A stretch of DNA of 64,000 nt from an uncultured delta proteobacterium (GTDB taxonomy: Bacteria; Myxococcota_A; Polyangia; Fen-1088). Location of the stretch: NCBI GenBank assembly GCA_963767925.1, contig CAVYGB010000008.1, positions 896,001 to 960,000 of the forward strand. The letters run 5' to 3'. Position numbers and translations under genes: made by a program. Below the pieces are notes generated by a model. The model made no database searches. It saw nothing but the letters and a program-made list of their open reading frames with translations, and was not told the DNA's origin. Positions 40,959 to 61,762 of the stretch are shown here, one piece after another. The number at the start of each line of letters is the position of its first letter. Positions within the stretch are counted from its first letter, which is position 1.

Positions 40959-42439
40959 GGCCGCGGGCGCCCCGTCTCCCCGTCGCCATCCAGCAGGCGC
41001 GCCGACAGGGTGCTGCGCAAGTGTCCCTGCGGATCCCAGCGGCGGCGCACCTCCTGCCAGAGGGGCAGGCGGGGATCCATCTGCCGCAGGTGGGTGCGCC
41101 TCGTGAAGGCGTCCTTGGCGAGATAGATCCGACCCCCCTCGGCGATGACCAGCTCGTTGAGCGCGTCGACCACCGACTGGGTCCAGAACCGGACGGGAAA
41201 ATCCACGGCGATGGAGATCCCGGGCTTCGGGAAAGAGAGCAGCCCCTGTCCCTCGGCGCCGCAGTCCTTGATCACACAGAGGGGAGAGGCCACCCCCTGC
41301 TCGCTGATGATCTCCATCAAGCGGTGCAGGGCCCGGCGCCCGGCCGCGTGCGGGATCACGCACTGGTACTGGGTCAGCCCCGGCCTCCCGTACAGGCGGT
41401 GCCAGTTGTGCAGGCCGTCCAGGGGATAGAAAAACGCGTTGGGGTGCACGATGCCCCGCCGCCGCCGGGGGGCCCAGTAGTAGGCGGCGTTGAACAGGCG
41501 GCTGGTCGGGCGGGAGATCGCCCAGCGGGGCAGGCAAAACGGCACCGGCAGTCCGCCGCCCGCGGGGGGCGCATGGGCGGGCGCCTCGTGCGGCTCGGCC
41601 CAGCGCCCGCAGAACAGGATGCCCCGGCCCAGGGCGCGGCCCCGCGCCAGGCAGTCGATCCAGCCGGCCGTGAAGGGCCAGCGGGAGGCCGCGTCGCTCA
41701 GCCGGTCGACGAAGGCGTCGATGCCGTCGACCCGCTGGTTTTCGCCCCAGATCCAGGGCGAGGGGATGGGGACCATCTTGAAGGCCACCTCGAGGACGTG
41801 GCCGGTCAGGCCCATGCCACCGAGGGTGGCGCGGAACAGATCGGGCAGCACGGTGGGCGAACACTCCACGATCCGCCCGTCGGCCAGCCGCAGGCGCAAG
41901 GCCGTCACGTGGGCCCCGAAACAGCCGGCCTGGTGGTGGTTCTTGCCGTGCACGTCGGCGGCCACCATCCCGCCGAGCGTGACGAACTTGGTGCCGGGCG
42001 AGACGGGCACGAACCAGCGCCGCGGCAACATGATCCGGTAGATCTCTTCGAGCGAGAGCCCGGCCTCGGCGCGCAAGATCCCGGTCTGCGGATCGAAGGC
42101 CAGGAACCGGTTGGCCGGGGGTGAGCCGGCCACCCGATCACCCGGCGCCGGGAGCGAAGCGTCGCCGTAAGACCGGCCCAGCCCGCGGGATAGCCGAGCG
42201 TCGCGCGTCGCGCCCTCGAAGTCCTCGCTGAGGACCTCGCGCCCGGGTACGATCGGCTGGCGGCCCCAGCCCGTCAGATCGGTCAACGGGATGTCGCGCT
42301 CGCGGGGGGACGGGCCGGGGTCGACCGGCGCAGGCACGAGGTTGAGGGTGTTGGGGATCGCCAGGGTCCGCTCCCGTCGGAAAATCGCGCTCTCATTTAC
42401 ACCATGTGCGCGCCGGATGCTACCGGCGCCACGCGGCAC
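40955..42439 (-). CDS. DprE1-like FAD-binding oxidoreductase (start uncertain)
   Basis: GWGR, RGLGRSYGDAS, PVSPGTKFVTLGGMVAADVHGKNHH, FFYPLD, QYQ, GGRIYLAKD. Confidence 0.9.
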   Translation of the reverse strand: MPRGAGSIRRAHGVNESAIFRRERTLAIPNTLNLVPAPVDPGPSPRERDIPLTDLTGWGRQPIVPGREVLSEDFEGATRDARLSRGLGRSYGDASLPAPGDRVAGSPPANRFLAFDPQTGILRAEAGLSLEEIYRIMLPRRWFVPVSPGTKFVTLGGMVAADVHGKNHHQAGCFGAHVTALRLRLADGRIVECSPTVLPDLFRATLGGMGLTGHVLEVAFKMVPIPSPWIWGENQRVDGIDAFVDRLSDAASRWPFTAGWIDCLARGRALGRGILFCGRWAEPHEAPAHAPPAGGGLPVPFCLPRWAISRPTSRLFNAAYYWAPRRRRGIVHPNAFFYPLDGLHNWHRLYGRPGLTQYQCVIPHAAGRRALHRLMEIISEQGVASPLCVIKDCGAEGQGLLSFPKPGISIAVDFPVRFWTQSVVDALNELVIAEGGRIYLAKDAFTRRTHLRQMDPRLPLWQEVRRRWDPQGHLRSTLSARLLDGDGETGRPRP

Positions 42440-47728: not shown

Positions 47729-49546
47729 CTAGGCGCCGCCGTCGGGGGGACCGCAGGTGGCGGTGGCGCTGGTGGGTGCCCCGCTGCAGGCCAGGCCGCC
47801 CTGGCAGGGCGTCTGCCCGTCACCCGAGCAGCAGCTCTGGCCCATGCCACCGCAGGGGCGGCAGGCCTCCATCGCGCAGCGGAAGCCAGCCTGGCAGGCC
47901 GGGCCGCTGATGCAGCAGGGCTGTCCCGTGCCGCCGCAGGTGGCGCAGGTCCCGGTCACCCCCGTGTCGGAGTTGCGGCCGCTGCAGCCGAGTCCGGCCC
48001 CGCAGTCGCCTTCGTCGCCGATCCCGCAGCAGGCCTGGCCGGCCGCGCCGCAGGCTCCGCACTTGCGTCCGGTGGGCGCGAGGATGCACGAGGTGGCCGT
48101 TGCGCACTCCATGACCCCGCCGCCGCCGCTGCAGCAGGCCTGGTCCGCGGCGCCGCAGGCGCCACAGGTGCCGGGGTTGCTGCCGATCCGGCCCGCACAG
48201 CCCAGGCCGGTGCTGCAGCCGCCGCCGCCGCCGGTGCCGCAGCAGGGCTGGCCCATGCCCCCGCACGCGCGGCAGGTGTTGCCGGCCGCGGCCACCACGC
48301 AGTCCATACCGCTCTGGCAGGCATCGCCGTCTTCGCAGCAGGTCTGGCCAGGCCCACCGCACGCCTGGCACATCCCCAGGGCTGTCGCGCTCCGGCCGAC
48401 GCAGGTCTGCCCGGTCTGGCAGTCCCCGCCGCCGCCGGTGCCGCAGCAGGGCTGGCCCGCGCCGCCGCAGGTGCCGCACTTGTTGCCCGCGGCGTTGCGC
48501 AGGCAGCCCAGGGCGCCTTCACAGGCCCGCCCGTCGCCGCAGCAGGCCTGGTCGTTCTTGCCGCAGGCCTGGCAGGTGCCCCCGGCGCCCATGGTCGCGC
48601 CCAGGCAGGTGAGGCCGGTCTGACAGTTGGCGCCCGGGCAACACGCGCCGCCGGCGGCGCCGCAGGTGGCGCAGGTGGCCTCCACCGCGCCGGGGGGATC
48701 GGAGCAGCCCAGCCCGCTGTTGCAGGAATCGTCCTCGCAGCAGCGCCCGCCCGCGGTCCCGCAGGGCAGGCAGCGATCCGGCGCGCCCGCCACGCCGTCG
48801 GCGCAGACCAGGCCGCCGTTGCAGACGTCGTCGGCGCAGCAGGCCTGATCGGCCGCTCCGCACTTGGCGCAGAGGTCGGGCTGTCCCATCGCTCCGTCGA
48901 TACAGGCCAGGCCGGTGCCGCAGGCGTTGGCGTCCGAGCCCTGACAGCAGGTCTGCCCGTCCGCACCACAGCCAACGCACATGCCGGCGGTACAGCGGGC
49001 CGAGTCGCCGGTGCAGAACCCACCGCTCAGCGCGCCGCCGTCACCCGGGGTGCCGCCGCAACAGGTCTGGCCGCTGGCCCCGCAGGGGGCGCCGCTGGCG
49101 CTCGCACAGGAGCCGGCGGTGCAGGTGCCGCTGGCGCCCGCGCTGGAACAGGACTGCCCGGCCGCGATGCAGACGCGGGCGCTCCCTCCGCTCGAGGTGG
49201 GGACGCAGCAGGCGGCCCCTTCACACACGTTCGAGGCACAGCAGGCCTGTCCGGGCGCACCGCAGGGCCCGGGCGCGGCCGGTCCGCCGGTGCCCCCCAT
49301 GGGCGCGCCGGCGCCCCCCATGGGCGCGGGGCTGCCGCCCACCGGGGCGGGGCCGCCGTCGCTCCCGCCGCTGCCGGCAGCGCCCCCCGCCGGGCTGTCG
49401 CCCCCGCCACAGGAGAGGCCCGGTCCGACCGCGGCCCATCCCAGCAGCACCACCGTCGCCGCCCTCAGGCTCCAGGCGAGGGACGGACGGTGACGGCGGG
49501 CGGCCTGGGTGGGGGTCAGTTGCTCTGGGCAAGGCTTGGTCGTCAT
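47729..49546 (-). CDS. Cys-rich tandem-repeat lipoprotein
   Basis: GGAGGA RBS; LSC lipobox; about 14 CGxxxxxCC units. Confidence 0.85.
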   Translation of the reverse strand: MTTKPCPEQLTPTQAARRHRPSLAWSLRAATVVLLGWAAVGPGLSCGGGDSPAGGAAGSGGSDGGPAPVGGSPAPMGGAGAPMGGTGGPAAPGPCGAPGQACCASNVCEGAACCVPTSSGGSARVCIAAGQSCSSAGASGTCTAGSCASASGAPCGASGQTCCGGTPGDGGALSGGFCTGDSARCTAGMCVGCGADGQTCCQGSDANACGTGLACIDGAMGQPDLCAKCGAADQACCADDVCNGGLVCADGVAGAPDRCLPCGTAGGRCCEDDSCNSGLGCSDPPGAVEATCATCGAAGGACCPGANCQTGLTCLGATMGAGGTCQACGKNDQACCGDGRACEGALGCLRNAAGNKCGTCGGAGQPCCGTGGGGDCQTGQTCVGRSATALGMCQACGGPGQTCCEDGDACQSGMDCVVAAAGNTCRACGGMGQPCCGTGGGGGCSTGLGCAGRIGSNPGTCGACGAADQACCSGGGGVMECATATSCILAPTGRKCGACGAAGQACCGIGDEGDCGAGLGCSGRNSDTGVTGTCATCGGTGQPCCISGPACQAGFRCAMEACRPCGGMGQSCCSGDGQTPCQGGLACSGAPTSATATCGPPDGGA

Positions 49547-49758
49547 CCTGGGTCCTCCTCGGGTGCGGGTGAGCGGCCTCCAGATTAGTGCCGCGATCCG
49601 CGTCGATGTCGTCAAAGGTACGGGATTGGCGCACGGTCGCGCAGGGCCGGACAGGATAGACCGAAAATGCTCAAAGAAACCGCTGGGCAACGTTCCTGGA
49701 GCAGCGCGCCCGGTCTTTTACCGGGACCCGCTGAGGAGGGGCGGCGCGGCAGGAACCG

Positions 49759-52700
49759 TCACTGTTCGCGGCAGTCGGCCGGGATCTCGACCGGGCCGAA
49801 GGCGTAGGGCCGAGCCTGCTTGATCACGAGGGAGCGGGTGGGTCCCACCAGCTTCCACTCCGATTCCATGGCGAACCAGCGGTTGGCGCTGCTCGGATCG
49901 ATGCGGGGGGCGAAGTGGCTGTGCACCGCCCGCATGAGGCAGGCGATGCGGGCGACCTCCGCGGGCTGCAGCACCGGGGTGGCGATCAGGCTGCTGCGCG
50001 ACAGATAGGTGGACGGCGGATCTTTCCACCAGGCGTAAGTCATCGACTCGCTCGCCACGCCGGGGGCCGGGTTGGTGACGCTGGCCTCACCGGCCTGGGC
50101 GTTGAGGTAGTGGACGCTCCCGTAGATCGGGTTGCTGATGTCGCGGCTGACCGCCACCCCGTTGGCCCGCTCCACCCCGTCGTAGGCCTGATGAACCAGC
50201 ACCGCCATCGCCACCTGGCTCTGGTCGACGTTGCCGAGCTCGCGCTCGTCGTAGGCCCGCTCGGCCCACAGGCTGGCCCACACCGCCCGCAGGCCGTCGG
50301 CGAGCACCCGCTCGGGATCGCCGAGCGCGGCGCTCACCGAGGTGTAGAGGCCCGCCCCGCTGAAGCTCGGCAGGTCTTCGGTGTTGCTGCTCGAGCGCAG
50401 ACGGAAGCGCGCCTCGCCGAAGGCGGCCCGGGCGCCGCTCTCCACCTGCGCCAGGAGGGCCGCGTCGACGGGGTGGCTCAGGATGGCGCTGCGAACCTGC
50501 TCGAGGGCGGTGGCCCGGATGGCGGCGTCGCGGGCGAACTCCGGCCGCGCCCGCCAGCCTTGGAGCAGGGCCCGGGCGCCGCTGCCCTCGAAGTGCTCGA
50601 GCGAATGGACCACGGGCAACGCGTAGGCCACCGGCGGCACCGGCACCGGTCCCGGGCAATCGGCCTCGGTCGACTGCACGCGCATCAGCTCCGCGAGCTG
50701 CGCCGCCTTGGCCCCCAGCGCGGGCAGGCGGTCCAGGCCATGTAGCCGCAGGTCCTGCAGGCCCCGCAAGGTGAGATCGATCCGGGGCAGGATCTTCTCG
50801 CCCCGGGGCTTGCGGGACTCCCAGAAGGCCTGGGCCTCGGTTGTCGTCGCCGCGCGCACGGTGAAGCCCCCGCCGTCGACCTGCAGGCGGACCAGCGTCT
50901 CGAACAGGGGGGCCAGGCGGGCGTCCTGACGGGCGGAGACCAGGGCCATGTTGGGCGTGCCCCGGTTCCGGGTCAGCACCCCCACGTGGGACAGGGGGGT
51001 CTGGAAGGCCTCCGTGATCAGCCCGCCGACAAGCGGCACGTCGTTGGGGACGTCATCGGTGACAACGATGACATCGGGACCCAGCCGGGCCCGGGCCAGC
51101 TCGGCGGCCGGAACGAAACGCAGGACCCCGAAGCCCAGACCGGGCGTGATGGGCTGGAAGGTCTGATCCCGGAACGGCGCATTCGGCTCGAGCAGGGGCA
51201 AGGTCCCTTCGATCGCCTTCAGAAGCGCCACTTGCCGTCCCTGGGCCCGGACCGCCCAGGCGCTCGGTCGGGGGGTGCGGGCTGCTACCGCGAAGAAGGC
51301 CCGCCGCATCTGCTCGGCGCTGATCAGATCGGAGCTATCGAACTCCAGGGTCTGGACCCCGGAGCCGCCGTGGCGAACCAGGGTGGCCAGCAGGAAACGC
51401 CGGCCCGCGGTCTGGAAGTACTCTCGATCGGAGAAGGCCCGCCACCCGACATCGAAGGTGGCGGCCTGCGCCGGGTCGCAGCGATCCAGCCGCGGCTCGC
51501 CGAAGATGCGCTCGCGGATGAAGGTGTAGTGCAGCGACCATTGCCGGGCAGCGAGGAAATGCACGGTGTCCCCCGCCGCCATGTCCACCACCACCTTGGA
51601 GGCCAGCCCCTCCAGCCCGGTGCCACCTTCGCCCAGGGCCTGCAGGTCGCCCGGCGTGAGGAGCTGGCGCACCCGGTCGCCCACCTCGCGCGCGGGCAGC
51701 GGGCCGCAGCGGTCGTTTGTCGCTCCGGGCGTGGCCCGGGCGCAGAGCCGGTAGGCCACCGCGCCGCCCGCGTCGTCGCTGGCGAGCGCCAGGGTGGCTC
51801 CCTCTGGTAGCGCCAGGAAGTCGAGCCGGTGCAAGGGGGTGGCGTCGGCCCGGCGGAAGATCGTCACCACGCCCTCCATCTGCGAGGACGTGGCGCTCGC
51901 GCCGAACAGGGCGGCCAGGGTGCCGGCGGGCAGCGGGACCATCAGCCGCTCGCCGGGTGCGATCGATCCGCCGCGGGGCCAGGCCAGCTCGATCCCGTCG
52001 CGCTCGCCCGCCCAGGCGCTGCCCGGCTCCAGGCGGGTCATGCGCAGGGTGTGGCCGGCGAGGTCCAGCGCGGTGGCGTCGAGGTTGGCCACCTCGACGA
52101 AGCCGCTGGGGCGCAGGGCGATCTCGGTGACGGCCAGGCTTCCGGCCGGCTGACCGAAGCCGCCGGGCCAGGTGAACCCGGCGAACCGCACCTCCTCCGG
52201 CAGCTCGGTGGGCAAGGGCGGCCCGCAGGTGGGGCCGTTGACCCGGCCCGGACTGGCGTAGCGGCAGATCGCGAAGCCGCCGCCGTCGGGGAACCGGGCG
52301 TAGGCCACGTTGGTCTCGAGCGCGGGATAGTCGATGGCGTCGGCCAGCGCCCCCCCCACCTCGCGCAGCTCGACCCGTCCCCCGCGGGCGGCCAGCCGGA
52401 AGCCGAGGTGGGCCGGGCCCTGCTCGGGCGATCCGTCGGCCCACAGGAGCGCGGTCTCTCCCGGCGCCAGCCGGCGCGCGGGCAGGGGGTGGGGACGCCC
52501 GCCGTCGCTCAAGGTGAACCCGGCCAGGTCGATCGGCGCGGAGCTGCCGTTGCGCAGCTCGATCCAGTCGTCGGCCTGTCCGACCTCGTCGATCTGGAAG
52601 CCGTCGTCGTCGGCGCACAGCTCGTTGATCCGGAGGCCGGCCCCCGCCGCGCTGTCCCCCGATCCGTCCCGCGAGCCGTCGGCCGGCCCACCGTCGCCTC

Positions 52701-52821
52701 CACCGGGCCGCGGCGGTGGCGATTGCCCGCCGCAACCGATGTCGGGCAGCGCTGCCGCGACAAGCGTCAGAATTGCGAGAGTCCGTCCGGCCCGGGCCGG
52801 GGTTGTCGGGGTGAACGGCAT
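49759..52821 (-). CDS. Lipoprotein: two lamin-tail domains, phospho-His swivel domain and PPDK-type ATP-grasp domain
   Basis: GAGG RBS; IGC lipobox-like motif; INEL..DWIELRN and VTEI..FVEV.N (LTD); ITEAFQTPLSHVGVLTRNRGTP; GAKAA.L, RSSSNTEDL..FSGAGLY.S, E.EWK..IKQARP. Confidence 0.8.
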   Translation of the reverse strand: MPFTPTTPARAGRTLAILTLVAAALPDIGCGGQSPPPRPGGGDGGPADGSRDGSGDSAAGAGLRINELCADDDGFQIDEVGQADDWIELRNGSSAPIDLAGFTLSDGGRPHPLPARRLAPGETALLWADGSPEQGPAHLGFRLAARGGRVELREVGGALADAIDYPALETNVAYARFPDGGGFAICRYASPGRVNGPTCGPPLPTELPEEVRFAGFTWPGGFGQPAGSLAVTEIALRPSGFVEVANLDATALDLAGHTLRMTRLEPGSAWAGERDGIELAWPRGGSIAPGERLMVPLPAGTLAALFGASATSSQMEGVVTIFRRADATPLHRLDFLALPEGATLALASDDAGGAVAYRLCARATPGATNDRCGPLPAREVGDRVRQLLTPGDLQALGEGGTGLEGLASKVVVDMAAGDTVHFLAARQWSLHYTFIRERIFGEPRLDRCDPAQAATFDVGWRAFSDREYFQTAGRRFLLATLVRHGGSGVQTLEFDSSDLISAEQMRRAFFAVAARTPRPSAWAVRAQGRQVALLKAIEGTLPLLEPNAPFRDQTFQPITPGLGFGVLRFVPAAELARARLGPDVIVVTDDVPNDVPLVGGLITEAFQTPLSHVGVLTRNRGTPNMALVSARQDARLAPLFETLVRLQVDGGGFTVRAATTTEAQAFWESRKPRGEKILPRIDLTLRGLQDLRLHGLDRLPALGAKAAQLAELMRVQSTEADCPGPVPVPPVAYALPVVHSLEHFEGSGARALLQGWRARPEFARDAAIRATALEQVRSAILSHPVDAALLAQVESGARAAFGEARFRLRSSSNTEDLPSFSGAGLYTSVSAALGDPERVLADGLRAVWASLWAERAYDERELGNVDQSQVAMAVLVHQAYDGVERANGVAVSRDISNPIYGSVHYLNAQAGEASVTNPAPGVASESMTYAWWKDPPSTYLSRSSLIATPVLQPAEVARIACLMRAVHSHFAPRIDPSSANRWFAMESEWKLVGPTRSLVIKQARPYAFGPVEIPADCREQ

Positions 52822-53034: not shown

Positions 53035-53340
53035 TTGAAGCGGGTCATCCTCGTCGTCGCGTTCGCGCTGTTCGCCGTGCAGGCGAGCGGTCTCGCCCAG
53101 GGGGTGGAGATCCCGTGCGCGGAGCGCTGCCAGGACGACGGGCCCGATGGCCGCTGCGCCCCCACCTGCCAGGATTGTCTCTGCTGCGCCCAGGTCCGGG
53201 TGTACCCGGCGGGCGCACCCACCGCGCTGGTCCCCACGCAGCCGGTCGCGCGGATCGCCTGGCCGGCGCAAGCGACGCCGGCTTCGCCCGACCCGGGTGA
53301 GATCCTGCGGGTCCCCAAGGGCGCTCCGATCCGAACCTGA
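53035..53340 (+). CDS. Small secreted Cys-rich leader-like protein upstream of the metal RND operon (CutF/CruR/DUF2946-like)
   Basis: Signal peptide; CAERC, CAPTCQDCLCC; Pro-rich tail ending SPDPGEILRVP. Confidence 0.65.
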   Translation: MKRVILVVAFALFAVQASGLAQGVEIPCAERCQDDGPDGRCAPTCQDCLCCAQVRVYPAGAPTALVPTQPVARIAWPAQATPASPDPGEILRVPKGAPIRT

Positions 53341-53501
53341 AGCGCCTGGCTGCCGCCAGGACAGAACGCCAGAGGTGACCCGGGGAGTCCCCGGGCGGCA
53401 CCCTGCGATGGTCAGCGTCCGCCGATCGCGCGCGCCTGTGCGTGCCGGCCGGGCGCGCCCGAACCACCCGATCCATCCGCGCCCACGTCGAGAGATCCAC
53501 C

Positions 53502-54725
53502 ATGTCCCGCAAGCTCCTGTCCGCGACGGCGGCGGCGTTGTTCACGCTGCCCGCCTGGCCAACCTCTGCCCAGCCGTCCCTCACCCTCGATCGGGCCCTC
53601 GTCCTGGCCCGGGAGCGGGCGCCGGCCGTGCTGGCCGCCCGGCTGCAGATCGAGGAGGCCCGGGGCCACCTCTCCGGAGCGCGCGCCTGGCTCGCCGAGA
53701 ATCCGACCCTGAGCGGAGGGCTGGGCCGGCGCCTCGGCGTCGGCCCCGCCCGCCCCCTGGAGGCGCAGGTCGAGCTGAGCCAGCCGGTCGAGCTCGGCGG
53801 GCGCCGCGCAGCCCGGATCGAGGCCGCCGACGCCGGGGTGGCGGCGGCCGCCGCCGGCAGCGAGGGGACGCTCCGGGAGACGGAGGCGCAGGTGGCGCGG
53901 GCCTTCTTCCGGGCTCTGTTCGCGGCCGAGCGGGCCCGGCTGGCGGCGGCGACCCAGGAGACGGCGGCCCACTCGGCGCGGGCGCTCGAGCGCAGGCATC
54001 AGGTGGGCGACGTGCCGATCCTCGAGGTGAACCTGGCCCGGACCGCCCTGGCGCGGGCGTCGGCCGAGGTCCGGGGTGCGCGGGCGCTCGAGCTGGCGGC
54101 GCTGGGGGACCTCGAGGTCCTCCTCGGCCTCGAGCCGGGGGCCAGCGTCGCGGTGTCGGGCCGCCTCGAGGATCAGCGCCGCTACGACCTCCCGCGCCTG
54201 CTCGAGCGGTCCGGACAGCGCTCCGACACGCGGGCGCTGCTGGCGGAGGCCCGGGCGGCGCGCGCCCAGGCGTCCCTGGCCCGGGCCGAGCGCTGGCCGC
54301 GCCTGGGCCTGGGCGGCTCGTTCGAGCGCGAGGACGGCGAGGACCTCGTGCTCGGGACGCTGTCGCTGGAGCTCCCCGTCTTCCAGCGCGGGCAGGGCCT
54401 GCGGGCGGCGGCGGAGGCCCGGGCCCGGCGCCTGGCCGGGCAGGCCGAGGCCACCCGGCGGGCAGCCGAGGCGGCGGTGCGGGTGGCGTTCGAGGTCCAC
54501 CAGCAGCGCCTGGCCGCCGCGCGCGCGCTGCAGGAGGTCCTGCCGCTGGTGGCCGACAACGAGGCGCTGGCCAGCCGCAGCCTGGAGGCCGGCCAGCTCT
54601 CCCTGGCCGACTGGCTGGTGGTCCGCCGGGAGGCGCTCGAGACCCGCCGGGAGTACCTCGAGCGCCTGCTGGAAGCGGCCGACGCCGGGGTGGGGCTGGC
54701 GCTGGCCGCCGGGGTGTCGCCATGA
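53502..54725 (+). CDS. TolC/CzcC-family outer-membrane factor
   Basis: ENPTL, LSQPVELGG.R.ARI, LPVFQRGQG, EAGQLSL; ATGA overlap with the adaptor gene. Confidence 0.9.
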   Translation: MSRKLLSATAAALFTLPAWPTSAQPSLTLDRALVLARERAPAVLAARLQIEEARGHLSGARAWLAENPTLSGGLGRRLGVGPARPLEAQVELSQPVELGGRRAARIEAADAGVAAAAAGSEGTLRETEAQVARAFFRALFAAERARLAAATQETAAHSARALERRHQVGDVPILEVNLARTALARASAEVRGARALELAALGDLEVLLGLEPGASVAVSGRLEDQRRYDLPRLLERSGQRSDTRALLAEARAARAQASLARAERWPRLGLGGSFEREDGEDLVLGTLSLELPVFQRGQGLRAAAEARARRLAGQAEATRRAAEAAVRVAFEVHQQRLAAARALQEVLPLVADNEALASRSLEAGQLSLADWLVVRREALETRREYLERLLEAADAGVGLALAAGVSP

Positions 54726-55933
54726 CCCGGCCGCGGCTCTCCGCGCTGCTGATCGCCGCCGCGACCCTGGCGGTGGGGGCCTGCAAGCGCGGGCATGAAG
54801 ACGGGCACGGGGACGACGATCACCCGCCCCGGGCCGGCGAGGCCGCCGGCGAGCACGCGCCGGTGAAGGCGGCCGATCCCGGGCTGCTGCGGGTCGATCC
54901 CGAGATGGTGCGCGACCTGCGCATCACGACCGCCCGGGTCGAGAGCCGGCCCGGCGACGAGGGGGTCACCCTGCTGGGCGAGCTGCAGGTCGATCAGGAG
55001 CGCTACGCCGAGGTGGGCGTCCCGGTGAGCGGGCGGATCCACCGCCTGCTCGCCGCGCCCGGCGATCGCGTGAAGGCCGGACAGGTGCTCGCCGAGGTCG
55101 AGAGCGTCGAGCTCGGCAAGGTCCGGGCGGCCGAGGTGGGGGCCCGGGCCCGGGCCGAGCTGGCCCGCCTGACTCTCGAGCGCAAGGGCCGCCTGGTGGC
55201 CGAGCGGATCCTGGCCGAGCGCGAGCTGGAGGAGGCCCAGGCCGACGCGAAGGCGGCGGAGGCCGAGCTGCGGGCCGCCCGCAGCACGCTCTCGGCGCTG
55301 GGGAGCGCGGCCGCCGGCGAGGGGGGAGGGGGGGCCCGCTTCGCCCTGCGCACGCCGGTCGCCGGCACGGTCCTCGAGCGGGAGGTGGCGCGCGGGCAAA
55401 GTGTCGACCCCGACAAGCGGCTGTTTCGCATCGCCGACCTCGGCAACCTCTGGTTGACCGTGCACGCCTTCGAGCGCGACGCCCTCCGGGTGCGCACCGG
55501 GGCCCAGGCCCGGGTGACCTTCCCCGCGCTGCCGGGACGGACCTTCAAGGGGCAGGTCTCCTGGGTCGGCAGCCAGGTCGACGTCACCTCCCGGACCATC
55601 CCGGTGCGGGTGACGGTGCCCAACCCCGAAGCGCTGCTCCGCCCGGGGATGTCGGCGAGCGCGTTCATCCTGGTGGGCGATCCCGCCAGCAAGGTCATCA
55701 CCGTGCCGGCGGCCTCCCTGCAGCGGCTCGATCGGGACTGGGTGGTGTTTCTCCCCGCCGACGCGCGCCACAGCTTCCAGGTGCGGCGGGTGGGCCGGGG
55801 CCGCGACCTCGGAGGCGAGGTCGAGATCGTGTCGAACCTGTCGGCCGGCGAGGTGGTGGTCGTCGATGGGGCCTTCCTGCTCAAGGCCGAGGCGGAGAAG
55901 GCCCGCGGCATGGGCGAGCGACACGAGCACTGA
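54722..55933 (+). CDS. CzcB-like RND periplasmic adaptor with His-rich termini
   Basis: Lipobox VGAC; HEDGHGDDDH; LRTPVAG, IADL..LW, LRPGM; ends in HEH. Confidence 0.92.
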   Translation: MTRPRLSALLIAAATLAVGACKRGHEDGHGDDDHPPRAGEAAGEHAPVKAADPGLLRVDPEMVRDLRITTARVESRPGDEGVTLLGELQVDQERYAEVGVPVSGRIHRLLAAPGDRVKAGQVLAEVESVELGKVRAAEVGARARAELARLTLERKGRLVAERILAERELEEAQADAKAAEAELRAARSTLSALGSAAAGEGGGGARFALRTPVAGTVLEREVARGQSVDPDKRLFRIADLGNLWLTVHAFERDALRVRTGAQARVTFPALPGRTFKGQVSWVGSQVDVTSRTIPVRVTVPNPEALLRPGMSASAFILVGDPASKVITVPAASLQRLDRDWVVFLPADARHSFQVRRVGRGRDLGGEVEIVSNLSAGEVVVVDGAFLLKAEAEKARGMGERHEH

Positions 55934-55941
55934 GGAACGCC

Positions 55942-58900
55942 ATGACCCTCGTCGACCGCGTCGTCGCGACAAGCTTTCGCCGGGCCCCGGTGGTCCTGGT
56001 CCTGGTCCTGGCCGGGGCCGCCGCCGGCGTGCTCGGGTTCGGGCAGCTCCGCCGGGACGTGTTTCCCGACCTCTCGGCGCCGGTGTTCAACGTCATCGTG
56101 CAGAACGCCGCCATGGGCGCCGAGGAGCTGGAGATCGGAGTGGCCGTCCCGCTCGAGGCGGCCCTCGCCGGTCTGCCCGACGTCCGCCGCATCCGCTCGA
56201 GCTCCCAGCTCGGCGTGGCCCAGGTGACCATCGAGTTCGAGGCCCGGGCCGACTACCACCGGGCCCGCCAGCTCGTGGCCGAGCGGGTCGCCCAGGCGGC
56301 CCCCCAGCTCCCCGCGGGGACCGACCGGCCCCTGGTCTCCAGCCTGACCGGCCGGCTCAACGAGATCCTGGAGTTCACCCTGGAGGCCCGCCCCGGGGTG
56401 GCCGACCTGATGACCTTGCGCGACCTGGCCGAGTTCGAGGTGCAGAACCGCCTGCTGGCGGTGCCGGGGGTGGCGGCGGTCGAGATCCTGGGCGGCTACC
56501 TCCGGCAGTTCCAGATCCTCCTCGATCCCGATCGCCTGGCCGCGCGGGGCGTGACCCTCGACGAGGTCATGCACGCCGCCGAGGGAGCCAACCTCGACGC
56601 CTCGGGCGGCTTCCTGGTGCGCGGGCCGACCGAGTGGTCGGTGCGGGCCATGGCGCGGGCCGGTCGGGTCGAGGACATCCGCTCGACGGTCGTGGCGGTG
56701 CGGGGAGGGACCCCGGTCAACCTCGGCGACGTGGCCGAGGTGCGGGAGGGGCCGGCGGTGCGGCGGGGCATCGCCCACCGCCTGCGGGGAGAGGTGGTGA
56801 GCTGCCGGGTGGTCAAGCAGTTCGGGGCCGACACGGTCAAGGTGGCGGACGAGGTGCGCCGGGCCATCGCCGAGCTGGCCGTCGGGCTGCCCCGGGGAGT
56901 GGCCTTGCGGGTTGTGTACGACCAGGCCGATCTGGTGCGGGCCTCGCTCGACGGGGTGGGGCGGGCGGTGCTGGCGGGCGCGGCCTTCGTGGTCCTCGTC
57001 ATCTTCCTGCTGCTCGGCAACCTGCGGGCCGCCCTCGTCGTGACGGTCACCATCCCGCTGTCGCTCGCCCTGGCCGGGCTGGTCCTCGAGCAGATCGGCG
57101 TGGGCCTCAACGCCATGACCCTGGGGGGGCTGGCGGTGGCGGTCGGCCTCCTGGTGGACGCCTCGATCATCGTCACCGAAAACGTGGTCCACAGGCTGAA
57201 CCAGGAAGGCAGCGCCGATCGGCGGGAGCGGGTGATCGCAGCCGCCCAGGAGGTCGGCCGCCCCATCGCCTTCGCCACCCTGATCGTCGTCGCCGTCTTC
57301 GCGCCCCTCATCGGGCTGACCGGCCTGGAGGGGCGCATGTACCAGCCGCTGGCCATCGCGGTCATCGCCTCGGTGCTGGCCGCGCTGGCGCTGTCGTTGA
57401 CCCTGGTGCCCCTGCTGGCGAGCCTGCTCATCCGCGGCCGGCCCGGCGCTGGCCCGGACGGGGGCGACGTCTGGCTGATCCGGGCGGTGAAGGCCCGCTA
57501 CCGGCCGCTGCTCGCCTGGTGCCTGCGGCGGGCCGGGCTGGTGCGCCTGGCGACGCTGGGGTTGACCCTGCCGGCGGTCGCCCTGGCCCTGACCATCGGC
57601 ACCGACTTCATGCCCCGGATCGACGAAGGCGCCCTGCTGCTGCAGACCGTGCTGCCCGCGGAGGCCTCGCTCGACGAGGTCGACCGGCTCAACCACCGGG
57701 TCGAGGACGTGTTGCGGAACTTCTCCGAGGTCGACGACGTCGTCCGCCGCACCGGCCGGGCGGAGCGCACGGAGGATCCCATGCCCCACACCGTCTCGGA
57801 CGTGCTGGTGGTGCTGCATCCCGATCGAGCTCGCTCCCGCGAGGAGCTGGAGCGGGCCATGCGGGCCGCCCTGGCGAAGGTCCCGGGGGTGTCGGTCCTG
57901 TTCACCACCCCGCTCGGCATGCGCATCGACGAGGGGCTGGGCGGCACCCCCGCCGACCTCGCGGTCCGGATCTTCGGCACCGATCTCACGGTGCTCGGGC
58001 AGCTCGCCGGGCAGGCCGAGGCCATCATGACCCGGGTGCGGGGGCTGGCCGACCTGCGCAGCGAGCAGCTCGGCGGCTTGCCCCAGCTCCGGGTCAACGT
58101 AGATCGGGCGGCGGTGGCCCGGGTGGGCCTCACCCCCGGCGACGTGGTGCGGGCCGTGCGCATCGGGCTGGTTGGCGAGCAGGTCTCGGAGATCTGGGTG
58201 GGGCAGCGGCGCTTCGATCTCATCGTGAGGTTGCAGGACGAGCGCCGGAGCAGCGCCGAGTCGATCCGGGCCCTGTTCATCGACGGCCATGACGGCACCC
58301 GCATCCCGCTGGGCCAGCTCGCCGAGATCGAAGAGGCCTTCGGCGCCGGGGCCATCCGGCGGGAGGCGGGTAGCCGCCGGATCGCGGTGGAGGCCTCGGT
58401 GGGGGGACGGGACCTCGGCGGCGCGGCGGCGGAGGTGCGGCGCGCGCTCGCCGCCGACCTGAAGCTGCCCCCCGGCTATTTCTTCGACGTGGGCGGGCGG
58501 GCCGAGAGCCAGGCCCGGGCCACCCGCGCGCTGGTCGTCGCCCTGGCCCTGGCCCTGGTGGCGGTCTTCCTCCTGCTCTACCTGGCTCTCGGCAGCCTGG
58601 CCGAGGTGCTCGTCATCCTGGCGACCCTGCCCGACGCGTTCGTCGGTGGCATCCTGGCGCTGCTGATCGCGGGGGAGACCTGGAACGTCTCCTCCCTGGT
58701 GGGCCTCATCGGCCTGTTCGGGATCGCCGTGCAGAACGGGCTGGTGCTCGTCTCGCAGACCCGCGACCTGCTGGCCGCGGGCCTGCCCTTCGATAGGGCG
58801 CTGTCGGAGGCCTGCCTGGGCCGGGTGCGGCCCAAGCTGATGACGGCGGCCACCGCGATCCTCGGCCTCTTGCCCCTGCTGGTGTTGCCCCTGCACGGCA

Positions 58901-59046
58901 CCGAGATCGAGCGGCCGCTGGCGGTGGTCATGATCGGCGGCCTCGTCACCTCGACCCTCTTCACCTTGCTGGCGTTGCCGACTTTCTATGTTCTGGTCAA
59001 TCAGCTGCGGGTTTCCTGGCGGTCGCGGCGAGGCAAGAACGCGTGA
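55942..59046 (+). CDS. CzcA/CusA-family heavy-metal RND permease
   Basis: 1034 aa; DVFPDL, GLLVDASIIVTEN, GRAERTEDPM, GIAVQNG, RVRPKLMTA. Confidence 0.95.
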   Translation: MTLVDRVVATSFRRAPVVLVLVLAGAAAGVLGFGQLRRDVFPDLSAPVFNVIVQNAAMGAEELEIGVAVPLEAALAGLPDVRRIRSSSQLGVAQVTIEFEARADYHRARQLVAERVAQAAPQLPAGTDRPLVSSLTGRLNEILEFTLEARPGVADLMTLRDLAEFEVQNRLLAVPGVAAVEILGGYLRQFQILLDPDRLAARGVTLDEVMHAAEGANLDASGGFLVRGPTEWSVRAMARAGRVEDIRSTVVAVRGGTPVNLGDVAEVREGPAVRRGIAHRLRGEVVSCRVVKQFGADTVKVADEVRRAIAELAVGLPRGVALRVVYDQADLVRASLDGVGRAVLAGAAFVVLVIFLLLGNLRAALVVTVTIPLSLALAGLVLEQIGVGLNAMTLGGLAVAVGLLVDASIIVTENVVHRLNQEGSADRRERVIAAAQEVGRPIAFATLIVVAVFAPLIGLTGLEGRMYQPLAIAVIASVLAALALSLTLVPLLASLLIRGRPGAGPDGGDVWLIRAVKARYRPLLAWCLRRAGLVRLATLGLTLPAVALALTIGTDFMPRIDEGALLLQTVLPAEASLDEVDRLNHRVEDVLRNFSEVDDVVRRTGRAERTEDPMPHTVSDVLVVLHPDRARSREELERAMRAALAKVPGVSVLFTTPLGMRIDEGLGGTPADLAVRIFGTDLTVLGQLAGQAEAIMTRVRGLADLRSEQLGGLPQLRVNVDRAAVARVGLTPGDVVRAVRIGLVGEQVSEIWVGQRRFDLIVRLQDERRSSAESIRALFIDGHDGTRIPLGQLAEIEEAFGAGAIRREAGSRRIAVEASVGGRDLGGAAAEVRRALAADLKLPPGYFFDVGGRAESQARATRALVVALALALVAVFLLLYLALGSLAEVLVILATLPDAFVGGILALLIAGETWNVSSLVGLIGLFGIAVQNGLVLVSQTRDLLAAGLPFDRALSEACLGRVRPKLMTAATAILGLLPLLVLPLHGTEIERPLAVVMIGGLVTSTLFTLLALPTFYVLVNQLRVSWRSRRGKNA

Positions 59047-60185: not shown

Positions 60186-60243
60186 CCCCTGGAGCCCGGT
60201 CGGACAGCCGTCTCGCGGAGGTGGACACCTGTCCGCCGTCGAT

Positions 60244-60273
60244 CCGGACATTCCCGGACGTTCCCGGACGTTC
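60244..60273 (+). repeat. Three tandem 10-bp repeats CCGGAC(A/G)TTC
   Basis: ccggacattc ccggacgttc ccggacgttc in the intergenic region. Confidence 0.85.
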
Positions 60274-60308
60274 GCCTCTGGTCGCGGCGGACCGGCGGGG
60301 GAACCGCG

Positions 60309-60324
60309 TGGCACGCCTCTTGAT
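60309..60324 (+). promoter_or_regulatory. Putative sigma54 promoter
   Basis: TGGCACG-CCTC-TTGAT: perfect -24 element, -12 reads GA instead of GC; ~48 nt before ATG 60372. Confidence 0.45.
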
Positions 60325-60371
60325 GAGGAGCGGGCCAGGTCCCGATCACCTCTCACCGAAAGCAAGCCACC

Positions 60372-61762
60372 ATGACAAACCTCCCCACGCGCCTGCTGGT
60401 CTCCTCGGCCCTCCTCCTCGCCGCGCCTCTCCTCGGCGCCGGCTGTGGCGACGATCCGTCCGCCCCCGCCCAGCCGTCCGGGTCACCCGGCGAGCCGCCC
60501 ACCTACGCGAAGGACGTGGCCCCCATCCTCGAGGCCAAGTGCACCAAGTGCCACCGCGAGGGCGGCATCGGCCCCTTCCGGCTCACCAGCTACGAGCAGG
60601 CCCGCACGATGGCCTTGCCGATGGCGGCGGCGACCCGGGCCGGCACCATGCCGCCCTATTACATCACCCACGACGGGACCTGCGGCGACTTCGACGACCA
60701 CGAGGCGCTGAGCCCCGGCGAGATCGAGACCCTCTACGCCTGGGCCACCGGCGGGCAGAAGGAGGGCACCCCGGTGGCCCTCCCCCCGGCGGCGTCGGTC
60801 ACGAGCCTTCGGGCCAACGTCGAGCTGCGCACGCCGACCATCAGCCCCGTTGCCCAGGGTGGGCCGCTCGCGATGAACGACGAATACCGCTGCTTTCCCA
60901 TGGAGAGCGGGGGCGGCGCGGATCGCTTCCTGATCGGCTACGACATCGTCCCGGGCAATCCGGCCATCGTGCACCACGTGGAGGCCTTCTTCGTGAACGC
61001 CGAGCAGCGGAACAGCGCGGGCAAGACCGGAGCGGAGGTCATGCAGGCCCTCGACGACGCCGACCCGGACCGACCGGGCTGGCCCTGCTTCAGCTCGGCG
61101 GCCGACGACCTCGGCGATCAGAACATCCCGATCATCTGGGCGCCCGGCCAGGGACCCATCGTGTTCCCGGCGGGCATGGGGTGCGGCAGCGCAAGAGCGA
61201 TCGTCTGATCGTCCAGGTGCACTACAACCTCGGCCACGCCGGCCACGGCCACGGGGTGGCGGCCGCGGGCGCCTCGGACTCGACGACCCTCCGGCTCCAG
61301 TACGCCGACTCGGTCGAGCGCCAGGCGGTGGTGATGCCGATCGACCTCTTCCTCTCGACAATCGCCCAGCCGGAGCCGGCCTCCCTCCCTCCGGGGATGC
61401 CCTCCACCCGCTTCACCGGCCGGATGACGGGCGCCGACATCGGGCTCGGCTCGGAGGTCCCTTGGGTCGAGGTCGTCAGCATGATGCCGCACATGCACGG
61501 GCGCGGGCTGGGCCAGGAGATGCGCTTCCGCCAGCCAGGCGAGCCGAGCCAGTGCACCTCGAAGCTCGAGCGCTGGAACTTCAACTGGCAGAAGGTCTAC
61601 TTCTACCAGGGCACGCGCCCGCGCATCACCGCCGGCACCGAGATCGAGGTGTCCTGTGACTACGACACCTCGCGGGACACCTCCCCCGTGTTTCCCGGCT
61701 GGGGCACCGAAAACGAGATGTGCAGCGCCATCATGATGGTCGCCTTGCCTCCCGGCCTGTGA
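60372..61762 (+). CDS. Lipoprotein: c-type heme domain fused to copper type II (PHM/DBM-like) monooxygenase; one frameshift near 61180
   Basis: Lipobox GAGC; CTKCH; IVHH; then in the shifted frame QVHYN, PHMH..G, WNFNWQ..Y, C.YD, GWGTENEMC. Confidence 0.8.

Follow-up and report, generated by a model that had tools for sequence, protein, structure and literature searches.

A predicted surface-anchored dikinase with relatives beside VTC-DUF4956 genes: a tentative case for ATP regeneration outside the cytoplasm

Introduction

What could a dikinase do outside the cytoplasm, and from where would secreted bacterial kinases draw their phosphoryl donor? The periplasm and the surface of the cell are usually regarded as free of ATP. 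Genomes such as the one considered here encode many secreted CotH kinases, together with exported dikinases, up to several of them, whose active sites are intact. The gene described below, termed P0001, lies in a stretch of 64,000 nucleotides from an uncultured bacterium of the class Polyangia (the window), and its product has, as judged from sequence and structural models, the look of an intact swivel-histidine dikinase and carries a lipoprotein-type signal. The known enzymes of this type use ATP up, and the formation of ATP is energetically uphill unless polyphosphate supplies both phosphates. We nevertheless propose, tentatively, that P0001 is an extracytoplasmic polyphosphate/AMP dikinase regenerating ATP, because its relatives repeatedly adjoin presumed polyphosphate-exporter genes. 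We know of no enzyme of the dikinase kind that recharges AMP to ATP with exported polyphosphate.

Gene and domain organisation

The features of P0001 are gathered in Table 1. The gene is a single uninterrupted frame, with a GC content by codon position of 0.74/0.55/0.92, as against 0.81/0.65/0.75 in the in-frame stretch upstream of its ATG. Given this difference and a GAGG motif 8 nt ahead of the ATG, this ATG is the likely start; a longer TTG-started frame (to 53271) was ruled out by codon bias. Neither a promoter nor a terminator consensus was recognised at the gene, no plasmid match was obtained, and no RNA holder is listed for it.

Table 1. Features of the P0001 gene and protein within the window
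Feature	Position	Strand	Residues	Basis
Dikinase gene P0001	49759..52821	(-)	1020 aa, stop codon included	translation
Lipoprotein-type signal peptide (putative)	52732..52821	(-)	1-30	sequence; heuristic only
Gly/Pro/Asp-rich linker	52648..52731	(-)	31-58	sequence
Lamin-tail domain 1 (LTD1)	52222..52647	(-)	~59-200	Pfam PF00932, E 1.7e-11
Divergent lamin-tail-like domain 2 (LTD2)	51697..52149	(-)	~225-375	PF00932, E 0.0017
Domain X	51154..51687	(-)	~379-556	conservation; AlphaFold pLDDT 94.2
Swivel phospho-histidine domain	50806..51153	(-)	~557-672	conservation; AlphaFold model fold matches
PPDK/PEPS/RPH-type ATP-grasp domain	49792..50772	(-)	~684-1010	PF01326; 5hv1 match

A hydrophobic stretch precedes Cys30 (codon 52732-52734), which is conserved at 90% or more among 62 homologues. 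The heuristic search for a signal peptide with a lipobox cysteine was positive, as expected from the first-pass annotation, with an atypical lipobox carrying Asp at -3. P0001 is likely to be a surface-anchored enzyme of a soil-type bacterium. The two lamin-tail-like domains noticed at first sight were both retrieved, LTD1 clearly and LTD2 weakly (19.1 bits, under the cut-off of 34.3). LTD1 shares 38% identity with the LTD of a CotH protein encoded in the same genome (L030:6577-8163) and belongs, by sequence, to the LTD type found in LTD-CotH kinases, in line with the lamin-tail/CotH link suspected earlier. The protein ends after its ATP-grasp domain and, as had been pointed out, lacks a pyruvate-binding TIM barrel.

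The histidine and ATP-grasp domains

His612, whose codon falls at 50986-50988 as originally located, is 98% conserved among 254 sequences, in which Q607 and R620 are also conserved, and it opens helix 234-242 of the AlphaFold model. Residues 554-666 of this model match the swivel domains 2wqd (Z 10.3, rmsd 4.2, 114 aligned residues) and 2e28 (Z 10.2, rmsd 3.1, 102 aligned), as well as the PPDK carrier domain 2fm4 (Z 8.5, rmsd 3.1, 101 aligned), in keeping with the swivel fold first proposed for this segment. The PF00391 profile, which had been named as a check, gave no match by sequence in P0001. Family-wide, PF22973 matches the His domain of 24 of 75 members at E<=1 (best 6.7e-7), mostly under its curated cut-off of 27 bits, compared with two of 75 for PF00391; P0001 itself gives no PF22973 match at E<=0.05 and its same-genome paralogue reaches 15.9 bits. 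On these profiles, the family His domain looks nearer to that of glucan water dikinase (GWD, PF22973) than to that of PEP synthase (PF00391).

The C-terminal PPDK/PEP-synthase ATP-grasp assignment was confirmed by PF01326: PPDK_N covers residues 701-897 (E 3.5e-17), and the profile is present in all 75 members. The closest structural neighbours of this domain are RPH (5hv1: Z 30.9, rmsd 2.0, 295 aligned residues) and HpeI (Z 22.8). Residues K705, R809, E988, Q1002 and R1004 are 98-100% conserved in the 254 sequences and line up with their equivalents in cytoplasmic PEP-synthase/RPH-like proteins of the same genome. As far as sequence and model can tell, the hallmarks of the swivel-His dikinase superfamily (PPDK/PEPS/RPH/GWD) are present, namely an ATP-grasp with intact nucleotide-site residues and a swivel His. 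By analogy with RPH, PPDK and GWD chemistry, His612 is very probably phosphorylated via the ATP-grasp site and would then swivel to domain X.

Comparison with known dikinases

P0001 shares with RPH (5hv1/5hv3; NF041857) its ATP-grasp fold, the swivel His and the lack of a TIM barrel. However, RPH is cytoplasmic and arranged in the order ATP, rifampin-binding, His, whereas P0001 has its His domain before the ATP domain, a predicted export signal and no rifampin-binding domain; its NF041857 score is 47.1 for a cut-off of 999 bits. The likeness to PEP synthase and PPDK (PF01326) lies in the ATP-grasp residues and the swivel fold (2ols, 2fm4), but P0001 has no pyruvate-binding barrel, a permuted order with the ATP domain at the C-terminus, and a predicted export signal, and scores 42 against 739.75 bits with the PEP-synthase profile TIGR01418. 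The arrangement acceptor domain, His domain, ATP domain is that of GWD1/PWD (StGWD1; PDB 9HA9, 9QVI; PF22973), so the His-before-ATP-grasp order initially assigned agrees between the P0001 model and GWD, which also has an RPH-like ATP domain (PMC13553574, section 13). In contrast to GWD/PWD, P0001 is bacterial and predicted to be exported, carries LTDs and has no N-terminal starch-binding CBM, Pfam detecting no CBM in P0001 or in 45 scanned proteins (44 from the family plus a CotH protein).

Domain X

The domain of no assigned kind, first estimated at about 250 residues, measures about 180. Its model is an alpha/beta fold of five strands and five helices (AlphaFold pLDDT about 94), with K409, H431, F463, Y468, R474, E493 and D498 conserved at 85-100% in the 254 sequences; it is the presumed donor/acceptor site. 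The central domain of StGWD1 is described in PMC13553574 as an all-helical block of 444 residues (483-926) with 20 helices, which domain X does not resemble, judging from length and secondary structure. No Pfam match was found for domain X, a sequence search of the PDB gave spurious-looking matches only (Sec4, E 0.011), Foldseek returned no match at E<=0.001, and in a VIA comparison with 48,161 chains no match attained Z>=5, the highest value being 4.2, and no resemblance to a polyphosphate-binding fold appeared. The GWD central domain is not listed in this VIA result, which by itself does not exclude a GWD likeness. Similarities to polyphosphate kinase 1 (1xdo, Z 3.6; 2o8r, Z 2.9) and to a phosphohistidine phosphatase (Z 3.9) were at noise level and were set aside. 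Two ESM Atlas searches gave leads below 0.9 only, to a Myxococcota cluster (0.81) and to a green-algal PF22973 cluster (0.76-0.77). Just three or four basic residues are conserved. Domain X keeps its basic and acidic residues beneath widely differing tether domains, which would fit one small anionic co-substrate.

Family distribution and predicted export

P0001 belongs to a large, uncharacterised family, with 1825 50%-clusters at E<=1e-30 in myxobacteria, Fibrobacterota and Bacteroidota (Olleya and Aquipluma among the latter). No description of it was found in the literature searched; most subscription papers and supplements lay outside this search and may mention it. Public records read "PEP/pyruvate-binding domain-containing protein" or "phosphoenolpyruvate synthase", much as anticipated, and these names apparently stem from the ATP-grasp domain alone. 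The N-terminus is hydrophobic in 76 of the 84 short representatives and in 92 of the 107 proteins of LTD size, compared with 56 of 955 internal control windows, and a T9SS tail is present in four long forms, so most full-length members bear predicted export signals. Among longer proteins (1447-4130 aa), the search retrieved seven family fusions and no GWD. The matches between E 1e-30 and 1e-54 (16 genomes) are probably distant or ordinary PEP-synthase-like proteins and were set apart; VTC is found in six of these 16 genomes, with no link. The cut-offs of 1e-55 and 1e-120 were picked after the match list was known.

Genomic context

The recurring link to VTC and DUF4956 genes was absent from the first-pass annotation. 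A VTC gene lies within 10 kb of the dikinase at eight of 148 listed loci (seven genomes), where at most 0.57 would be expected, a count drawn from the 150 of 242 matches that were listed. Among these listed matches the positional enrichment is 14-fold and spans several clades and two phyla, 140 of the 148 loci being more than 10 kb from VTC. The VTC polyphosphate-polymerase clusters also hold DUF4956, HlyD/TolC, porin O/P and CotH kinase genes. Pfam-confirmed examples are L143-L149, L151, L156 (from the second phylum), L165, L167 and L117, the LTD-fused form being represented by L004 and L025; at L165, DUF4956, HlyD/TolC and CotH adjoin the dikinase and the VTC gene lies elsewhere in the genome. 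In 15 VTC proteins from these neighbourhoods, the tunnel-type residues, both basic and acidic, are invariant. In the dikinase tree the VTC-linked copies are spread over at least four distinct clades, in a reading which left out one out-of-frame row (L073_VTC) and an unverified VTC flag on L110.

At 109 loci taken regardless of VTC, DUF4956 adjoins the dikinase five times (about three of them independent; expectation 0.17) and a gene resembling porin O/P nine times (expectation 0.26); CotH adjacency is not enriched (3 versus 1.5 expected), and 97 of these loci have none of these neighbours. The profiles used for neighbour searches derive in part from the loci themselves, and key matches were verified against Pfam.

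At the genome level, VTC is present in 50 of the 56 genomes that carry a close dikinase core, compared with 28 of the 107 that lack any match. The dikinase also co-occurs with MopE, a control family unrelated to it (56/56 versus 74/107), so that part of the VTC signal reflects lineage. The VTC link persists on stratification, at 43/49 versus 27/44 within MopE-rich genomes and with a within-family permutation p of 0.006-0.025, and in the second phylum VTC occurs in 13 of 13 carriers versus 56 of 88 others. VTC was not found, even with a phylum-specific profile, in the carriers G072 and G111 (both 99% complete), G106, G146, G141 and G066, and G111 and G141 gave no CotH match either.

P0001 itself has no VTC, DUF4956 or CotH neighbour in the window; its neighbours encode a Cys-rich protein, a glycosyltransferase-like protein, a sulfatase and an RND efflux set. 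The two VTC genes of its genome lie on other contigs (C13 and C2), and CotH is represented there by at least ten Pfam matches, or 18 by our own profile.

Proposed mechanism

In the mechanism which we tentatively favour, a VTC-DUF4956 machine would make and export polyphosphate, which would bind domain X. With AMP or ATP sitting in the ATP-grasp domain, His612 would shuttle phosphoryl groups to and from polyphosphate, probably through a pyrophospho-His intermediate, with the net direction AMP + polyP(n) -> ATP + polyP(n-2). The resulting ATP would feed secreted kinases such as CotH, outside the cytoplasm, and the lamin-tail domains would likely tether P0001 where LTD-bearing CotH kinases sit. 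Class III PPK2 enzymes have a P-loop kinase fold, unrelated to that of P0001, and no phospho-His. As a functional analogy only, they nevertheless provide a precedent for the proposed net reaction, forming ATP from AMP and polyphosphate with 30-80% of it by pyrophosphorylation (PMC8776046). In yeast, VTC couples polyphosphate synthesis to membrane passage, according to PMC9911596; no demonstration that a bacterial VTC makes or exports polyphosphate was met with in the papers found.

The CotH/VTC/DUF4956 trio of the dikinase clusters is also known as a pel accessory set (S. intermedius SIR_1592-1594). In the passages on it in 10.1101/768473 and PMC12345266 it is described beside pel operons only, with no function assigned and no dikinase mentioned, and PMC12345266 states it to be absent outside the pel locus. 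The dikinase clusters, unlike these, lack pel and contain HlyD/TolC or porins.

A wider scheme, in itself doubtful, would be an extracytoplasmic energy circuit: VTC-DUF4956, with HlyD/TolC or porins, would export polyphosphate, and lipoprotein or T9SS-exported dikinases, combining a new-fold polyphosphate-binding domain with a pyrophospho-histidine swivel, would provide ATP for CotH-like secreted kinases. The family might also be the bacterial sister group that gave rise to the GWD/PWD His-ATP module.

The polyphosphate/AMP reading would need a source of extracellular AMP, and CotH kinases would release ADP and not AMP, which speaks against it. So do the absence of VTC, DUF4956 and CotH beside P0001 and of VTC near most listed loci, the carriers in which no VTC was found, and the small number of conserved basic residues in domain X.

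Alternative readings

The main rival, itself somewhat unlikely, is an ATP-consuming "X, water dikinase" that would phosphorylate a partner protein or some small molecule of the envelope. This is the direction in which RPH and GWD work, the two enzymes nearest by structure and by profile (PMC13553574, introduction and section 13). The acceptor could for instance be LipoA, a Cys-rich lipoprotein with an invariant His-Gly, which adjoins the short form at 24 of 138 loci: its invariant His would receive the beta-phosphate in an extracytoplasmic phosphorelay, ATP coming by another route of the same phosphate module. The paralogue L029 and its own LipoA are predicted to bind (score 0.78, best of three controls 0.00; the mark is reached by 116 of 157 solved complexes and two of 215 mismatched pairs), with runs agreeing in at least 75% of contacts and a partner pLDDT of at least 82. 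The predicted interface flanks the invariant residues of domain X and includes LipoA residues 181-185, but leaves the swivel His outside. LipoA, moreover, is found mainly in one part of the tree and is absent beside P0001 and all LTD-fused loci, whereas the domain X residues are conserved family-wide, and the ATP supply is left unexplained. LipoA had no solved relative in a PDB sequence search and no Pfam match. Its predicted docking beside domain X of L029 fits a protein acceptor equally well.

An exported small-molecule phosphotransferase working without polyphosphate, be it a detoxifier akin to RPH or an enzyme of the PEP-synthase type with a novel acceptor domain, is unlikely. The structural proximity of the ATP-grasp domain to RPH and HpeI would suit it, as would the orphan state of most loci and the several carrier genomes without VTC, but it does not explain the positional VTC enrichment, and the RPH and PEPS NCBIfam scores are far under cut-off.

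Less probable still is a surface glycan, water dikinase acting like GWD/PWD on an extracellular polysaccharide. Besides the GWD-like domain order and the nearness of the His domain to PF22973, it draws on reports that CotH/VTC/DUF4956 genes flank pel operons in Gram-positive bacteria and that two of the three mutants lower Pel-dependent aggregation (10.1101/768473 and PMC12345266). Against it stand the missing CBM, the dissimilarity of domain X to the GWD central domain and the lack of recurring glycoside-hydrolase or polysaccharide-synthesis neighbours, glycosyltransferase-like genes occurring at just five of 138 scattered loci. Of the original proposal of a dikinase phosphorylating a surface glycan or another acceptor, the exported dikinase type with GWD/PWD order is supported, and no support emerged for the glycan acceptor. 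Its suggestion that ATP might come from lysed prey fits poorly, since the family also occurs in Bacteroidota and Fibrobacterota, whose carriers are not known to be predators.

The opposite direction, in which ATP would be used to extend or prime surface polyphosphate, rests on the same gene context and is thermodynamically easier, but would need steady extracytoplasmic ATP and would duplicate the presumed job of VTC, and is very improbable. That P0001 is cytoplasmic or catalytically dead, with a spurious signal, is hardly credible despite its atypical lipobox and a relative, P0199, without the His and RSS motifs, given the family-wide export signals and T9SS tails and the near-invariant catalytic residues.

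Significance

Whichever the direction, the existence of so large a family of exported dikinases implies that phosphoryl chemistry at the nucleotide level takes place outside the cytoplasm, and the VTC-DUF4956 link makes the question of the phosphoryl donor of secreted bacterial kinases testable with one purified protein. Should the polyphosphate/AMP reading be true, the family would provide a one-step AMP-to-ATP regeneration enzyme. It also offers a domain without structural match and, for the GWD histidine domain, a close relative in bacteria. Among its cultured carriers are Sorangium cellulosum So ce56, Olleya and Aquipluma.

The gene and its family

The dikinase gene (49759-52821, minus strand) is a single open frame whose translation gives 1020 residues, with a GC bias of the coding type and a GAGG 8 nt 5' of its ATG. 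The signal, lamin-tail domains (LTD), His domain and ATP-grasp domain described in the first-pass annotation are all retained, while domain X, between the LTDs and the His domain, is shorter than had been proposed (~180 residues measured). The NCBIfam models of rifampin phosphotransferase (RPH), PEP synthase, PigC and RedH match only within the ATP domain, with scores far under their cut-offs.

Residues 379-1020 used as a query retrieved 1066 proteins among 7998 scored candidates. LTD and PPDK_N are combined in 108 of the best 120 of these 1066, and the named sources are mostly Polyangia/Myxococcota, which suggests that the window's genome is itself myxobacterial; further carriers were found on genome contigs of Sorangium cellulosum So ce56 and Fibrobacter/Chitinispirillaceae. 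When 1.84 billion representatives were searched with a profile, 1825 clusters matched at E<=1e-30, the weaker tail of which will take in ordinary PEP-synthase-like proteins. The majority of the 150 matches listed of these 1825 are proteins of ~640 aa with signal, domain X, His domain and ATP-grasp and without LTD; other forms carry extra CarboxypepD_reg, fn3, Calx-beta, CARDB, FG-GAP or T9SS-tail domains. Among the named members are proteins of Olleya and Aquipluma that are annotated just as 'PEP/pyruvate-binding domain', as had been anticipated, or as 'phosphoenolpyruvate synthase'.

The window's genome encodes three members, each with a lipoprotein-like N-terminus, and in its phylum a match is present in 94 of 201 genomes at E<=1e-30 and in 56 at E<=1e-120. 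A simple hydrophobicity rule called an N-terminal signal in 76/84 short representatives and 92/107 LTD-size proteins, versus 56/955 internal windows, many of the misses resembling truncated gene calls. The family is real and widespread, and appears to be intact and exported. It is apparently undescribed so far: no account of an exported dikinase was found in the literature searched, which consisted mainly of listings and abstract openings.

Some members have unusual layouts. P0138 (3227 aa) carries two full cores on one chain and P0220 a partial second core; P0199, in which the architecture is kept and both the His and the RSS motif are missing, is possibly a pseudo-enzyme.

Features of the dikinase protein (residue numbers), of fetched loci (L, with positions within each locus) and of the window
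Feature	Location	Strand	Description and basis
N-terminal signal	ends at Cys30	-	hydrophobic; sequence
Linker	after Cys30	-	Gly/Pro/Asp composition; sequence
LTD1	after linker		Pfam, clear match, E 1.7e-11
LTD2	after LTD1		Pfam, weak match, E 0.0017
Domain X	~379-556		no Pfam match
His domain	~557-672	-	His612 codon at 50986-50988
PPDK_N ATP-grasp	C-terminal, last domain		Pfam
Dikinase paralogue	L029:7258-9321		LipoA downstream
LipoA (example)	L029:9642-10490 (window's genome, contig C10)		Cys-rich lipoprotein
Cluster	L145	all one strand	DUF4956-HlyD-OEP-VTC-LipoA-DUF1554-dikinase; Pfam-confirmed
Cluster	L146		dikinase-VTC-DUF4956-HlyD-OEP; Pfam-confirmed
Cluster	L143		dikinase-LipoA-CotH-porin-CotH-(unknown)-VTC-DUF4956-CotH; Pfam-confirmed
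Cluster	L151		VTC-DUF4956-HlyD-OEP-dikinase-(lipoprotein)-LTD/CotH; Pfam-confirmed
Cluster	L165 (So ce56)		LipoA-DUF1554-dikinase-DUF4956-HlyD-OEP-CotH; Pfam-confirmed
Cluster	L156		VTC-type with dikinase, second phylum; Pfam-confirmed
Second VTC cluster type	L155 (window's genome, C2:1918000-1937000)		porin-like gene, ~570-600-aa thymidylate-kinase-like P-loop protein, VTC, Na+/Pi-cotransporter fusion
P-loop gene of second type	L110:7856-9667		dikinase gene directly upstream
HlyD adaptors with propeller	L146:5383-7533, L149:17453-19465, L165:11202-13328, L156:12651-13592		phytase-like or similar beta-propeller-type domain
DUF2252/metallophosphoesterase sites	L148:7932-9155, L167:1203-2321, L145:2-1471, L149:12261-13817		near VTC/dikinase clusters
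Cys-repeat protein	47729-49690	-	frame of 653 aa, probably starting near 49546; signal-like segment; no Pfam/NCBIfam match
Efflux-type set	53035-59046	+	small Cys-containing ORF, OEP, HlyD/CusB-type adaptor, AcrB/CzcA-type RND transporter
Copper-monooxygenase-like lipoprotein	60372-61762	+	apparently split between frames 60372-61208 and end of 60221-61762
Oxidoreductase genes	39481-42439	-	FAD-linked oxidase, then two short-chain dehydrogenases

Structure and active site

The core could be modelled with a pLDDT of 94.9 and a pTM of 0.92 (AlphaFold2, 135-row alignment). The modelled ATP domain is structurally closest to that of RPH (5hv1; Z 30.9, rmsd 2.0, 295 aligned), followed by HpeI and PPDK; passages of a study of the glucan, water dikinase (GWD) StGWD1 likewise report RPH as the best alignment of its ATP domain (PMC13553574). 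The His domain model resembles known swivel domains, namely those of Enzyme I (Z 10.3), pyruvate kinase (Z 10.2) and PPDK (Z 8.5). By profile, 24 of 75 members match PF22973 of GWD (best 6.7e-7) versus 2 of 75 for PF00391, which places the predicted His domain nearer to GWD's.

Over 254 sequences, dereplicated at 70% identity, the ATP-grasp residues K705, R809, E988, Q1002 and R1004 are 98-100% conserved, as are His612 (98%), Q607 and R620 (both 100%) in the His domain. Domain X keeps K409 (94%), H431 (100%), F463 (95%), Y468 (99%) and R474 (96%), together with the acidic E493 (85%) and D498 (93%). Modelled alone, it is an alpha/beta domain (pLDDT 94.2) for which structure comparison of the model gave no clear PDB match; on this model it is a domain without known fold.

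The GWD-like architecture initially proposed holds for domain order and His-domain type. In contrast, the window dikinase has neither a carbohydrate-binding module (CBM) nor a GWD-type central domain, which in StGWD1 comprises 444 aa and 20 helices according to passages of PMC13553574, and on both counts it falls outside GWD. By analogy, the protein would work in the manner of GWD and RPH. GWD is regarded as a hallmark of starch-making eukaryotes in passages of 10.64898/2026.09.25.754361, which name no bacterial relatives.

Association with polyphosphate genes

Recurrent neighbours in 138 dikinase loci are the lipoprotein LipoA, SGL beta-propellers, stand-alone LTD proteins, DUF1554, porin O/P-like proteins and DUF4956. 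An LTD is fused to or adjoins the dikinase in 60 of 109 loci fetched without regard to VTC, the polyphosphate (polyP) polymerase gene, and LTD1 shares 38% identity with the LTD found in a CotH (secreted kinase) protein of the same genome; in these 109 loci CotH adjacency showed no enrichment.

Comparison of dikinase and VTC match positions placed a VTC gene within 10 kb in 8 of 148 listed loci (7 genomes), versus at most 0.57 expected. The VTC-linked copies are spread over at least four clades of the tree, and the LTD-fused form of the window gene has genes of this kind as neighbours in L025 and in L004, to which L073 and L075 are closely related. The neighbouring VTC proteins have invariant basic and acidic residues, and their genes are accompanied by adaptors and outer-membrane channels (OEP/TolC).

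At genome level, VTC is present in 50/56 genomes with a close core versus 28/107 without match, and CotH in 52/56 versus 30/107. Part of the VTC signal reflects lineage, since the unrelated MopE control family co-occurs as well (56/56 versus 74/107). The link is kept among MopE-rich genomes (43/49 versus 27/44) and also when genomes are compared inside size classes or inside families (permutation p 0.006-0.025; 161 genomes with family label); in the phylum of L023, VTC occurs in 13/13 carriers versus 56/88 others. The majority of dikinase loci do not lie near VTC, which, like the lack of enrichment of CotH beside the gene, counts against an obligate link; so does the finding of no VTC in six carrier genomes that are 89-99% complete, two of them also without a CotH match. 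The tie to this candidate polyP export system is significant but partial. Passages of 10.1101/768473 and PMC12345266 describe a CotH, polyP-polymerase and DUF4956 trio, of unknown function, beside Gram-positive pel operons.

A second type of VTC cluster was also observed. The HlyD adaptors of VTC-DUF4956 clusters often have a propeller domain fused to them or following them, and DUF2252 proteins and metallophosphoesterases recur nearby. In the cultured strain So ce56 there are four family members, each of a different subtype (L165, L012, L176, L177). One sits inside the DUF4956-HlyD-OEP-CotH cluster and another has an LTD gene after it, while the strain's VTC-DUF4956 pair is a separate locus, L175.

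LipoA, a predicted partner

LipoA adjoins short-form dikinase genes in 24 of 138 loci. Its alignment shows a Cys-rich lipoprotein with an invariant His-Gly and Arg, and searches of Pfam and the PDB gave no match. Co-folding of the L029 paralogue with its downstream LipoA scored 0.78, the best of three controls reaching 0.00; the mark for this score is reached by 116/157 solved complexes and 2/215 mismatched pairs. At least 75% of contacts agree between runs, with a partner pLDDT of at least 82. The predicted interface joins the invariant His-Gly loop of LipoA to residues flanking the invariant His, Tyr, Arg and Asp of domain X and to part of the ATP domain. The models support binding of LipoA by this paralogue; the prediction is the paralogue's, as no LipoA gene lies next to the window dikinase. 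LipoA could serve as a scaffold or accept the phosphoryl group.

Proposed reaction

By analogy with RPH, PPDK and GWD, His612 is very probably phosphorylated at the ATP-grasp site, from where it would swivel to domain X. A pyrophospho-His intermediate belongs to PPDK-type chemistry. The basic and acidic set of domain X, conserved under many different tethers, indicates that it would bind one small anionic co-substrate. The sole recurring enzymatic context of the family is the VTC-DUF4956 module. Passages of PMC9911596 describe how yeast VTC couples polyP synthesis to passage across the membrane, and those of PMC8776046 how class III PPK2 converts AMP and polyP to ATP, in part via pyrophosphoryl transfer. 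Because of this residue set, this context and the VTC, PPK2 and PPDK precedents, it is tentatively put forward, as the leading candidate function, that the dikinase converts AMP to ATP outside the cytoplasm and is driven by polyP. Were ATP truly made there from polyP, which is possible and rather doubtful, the activity would be categorically new.

In the main rival reading, itself somewhat unlikely, the enzyme would be an ATP-consuming kinase acting on a partner protein, for example LipoA, or on a small acceptor. A small-molecule phosphotransferase unrelated to polyP, which the many loci away from VTC speak for and the VTC association speaks against, is improbable. The glycan acceptor originally suggested fits the GWD-like domain order; the absence of a CBM, of a GWD central domain and of polysaccharide gene context makes a glycan at domain X, and hence a glycan kinase, decidedly unlikely. 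Extension of polyP from ATP would share the VTC context and is very improbable, and an inactive or cytoplasmic protein, set beside the conserved residues and signals, is scarcely plausible.

Neighbourhood in the window

The context of the window gene was judged uninformative: downstream lie a Cys-rich protein without Pfam match, then glycosyltransferase-like and sulfatase genes. The frame of this Cys-rich repeat protein directly follows the dikinase on the same strand. The RND set, upstream and divergent, resembles an ordinary metal-efflux set. The split of the copper-monooxygenase-like gene is possibly a frameshift or sequencing error, and the oxidoreductase genes resemble those of the DprE1/DprE2 type.
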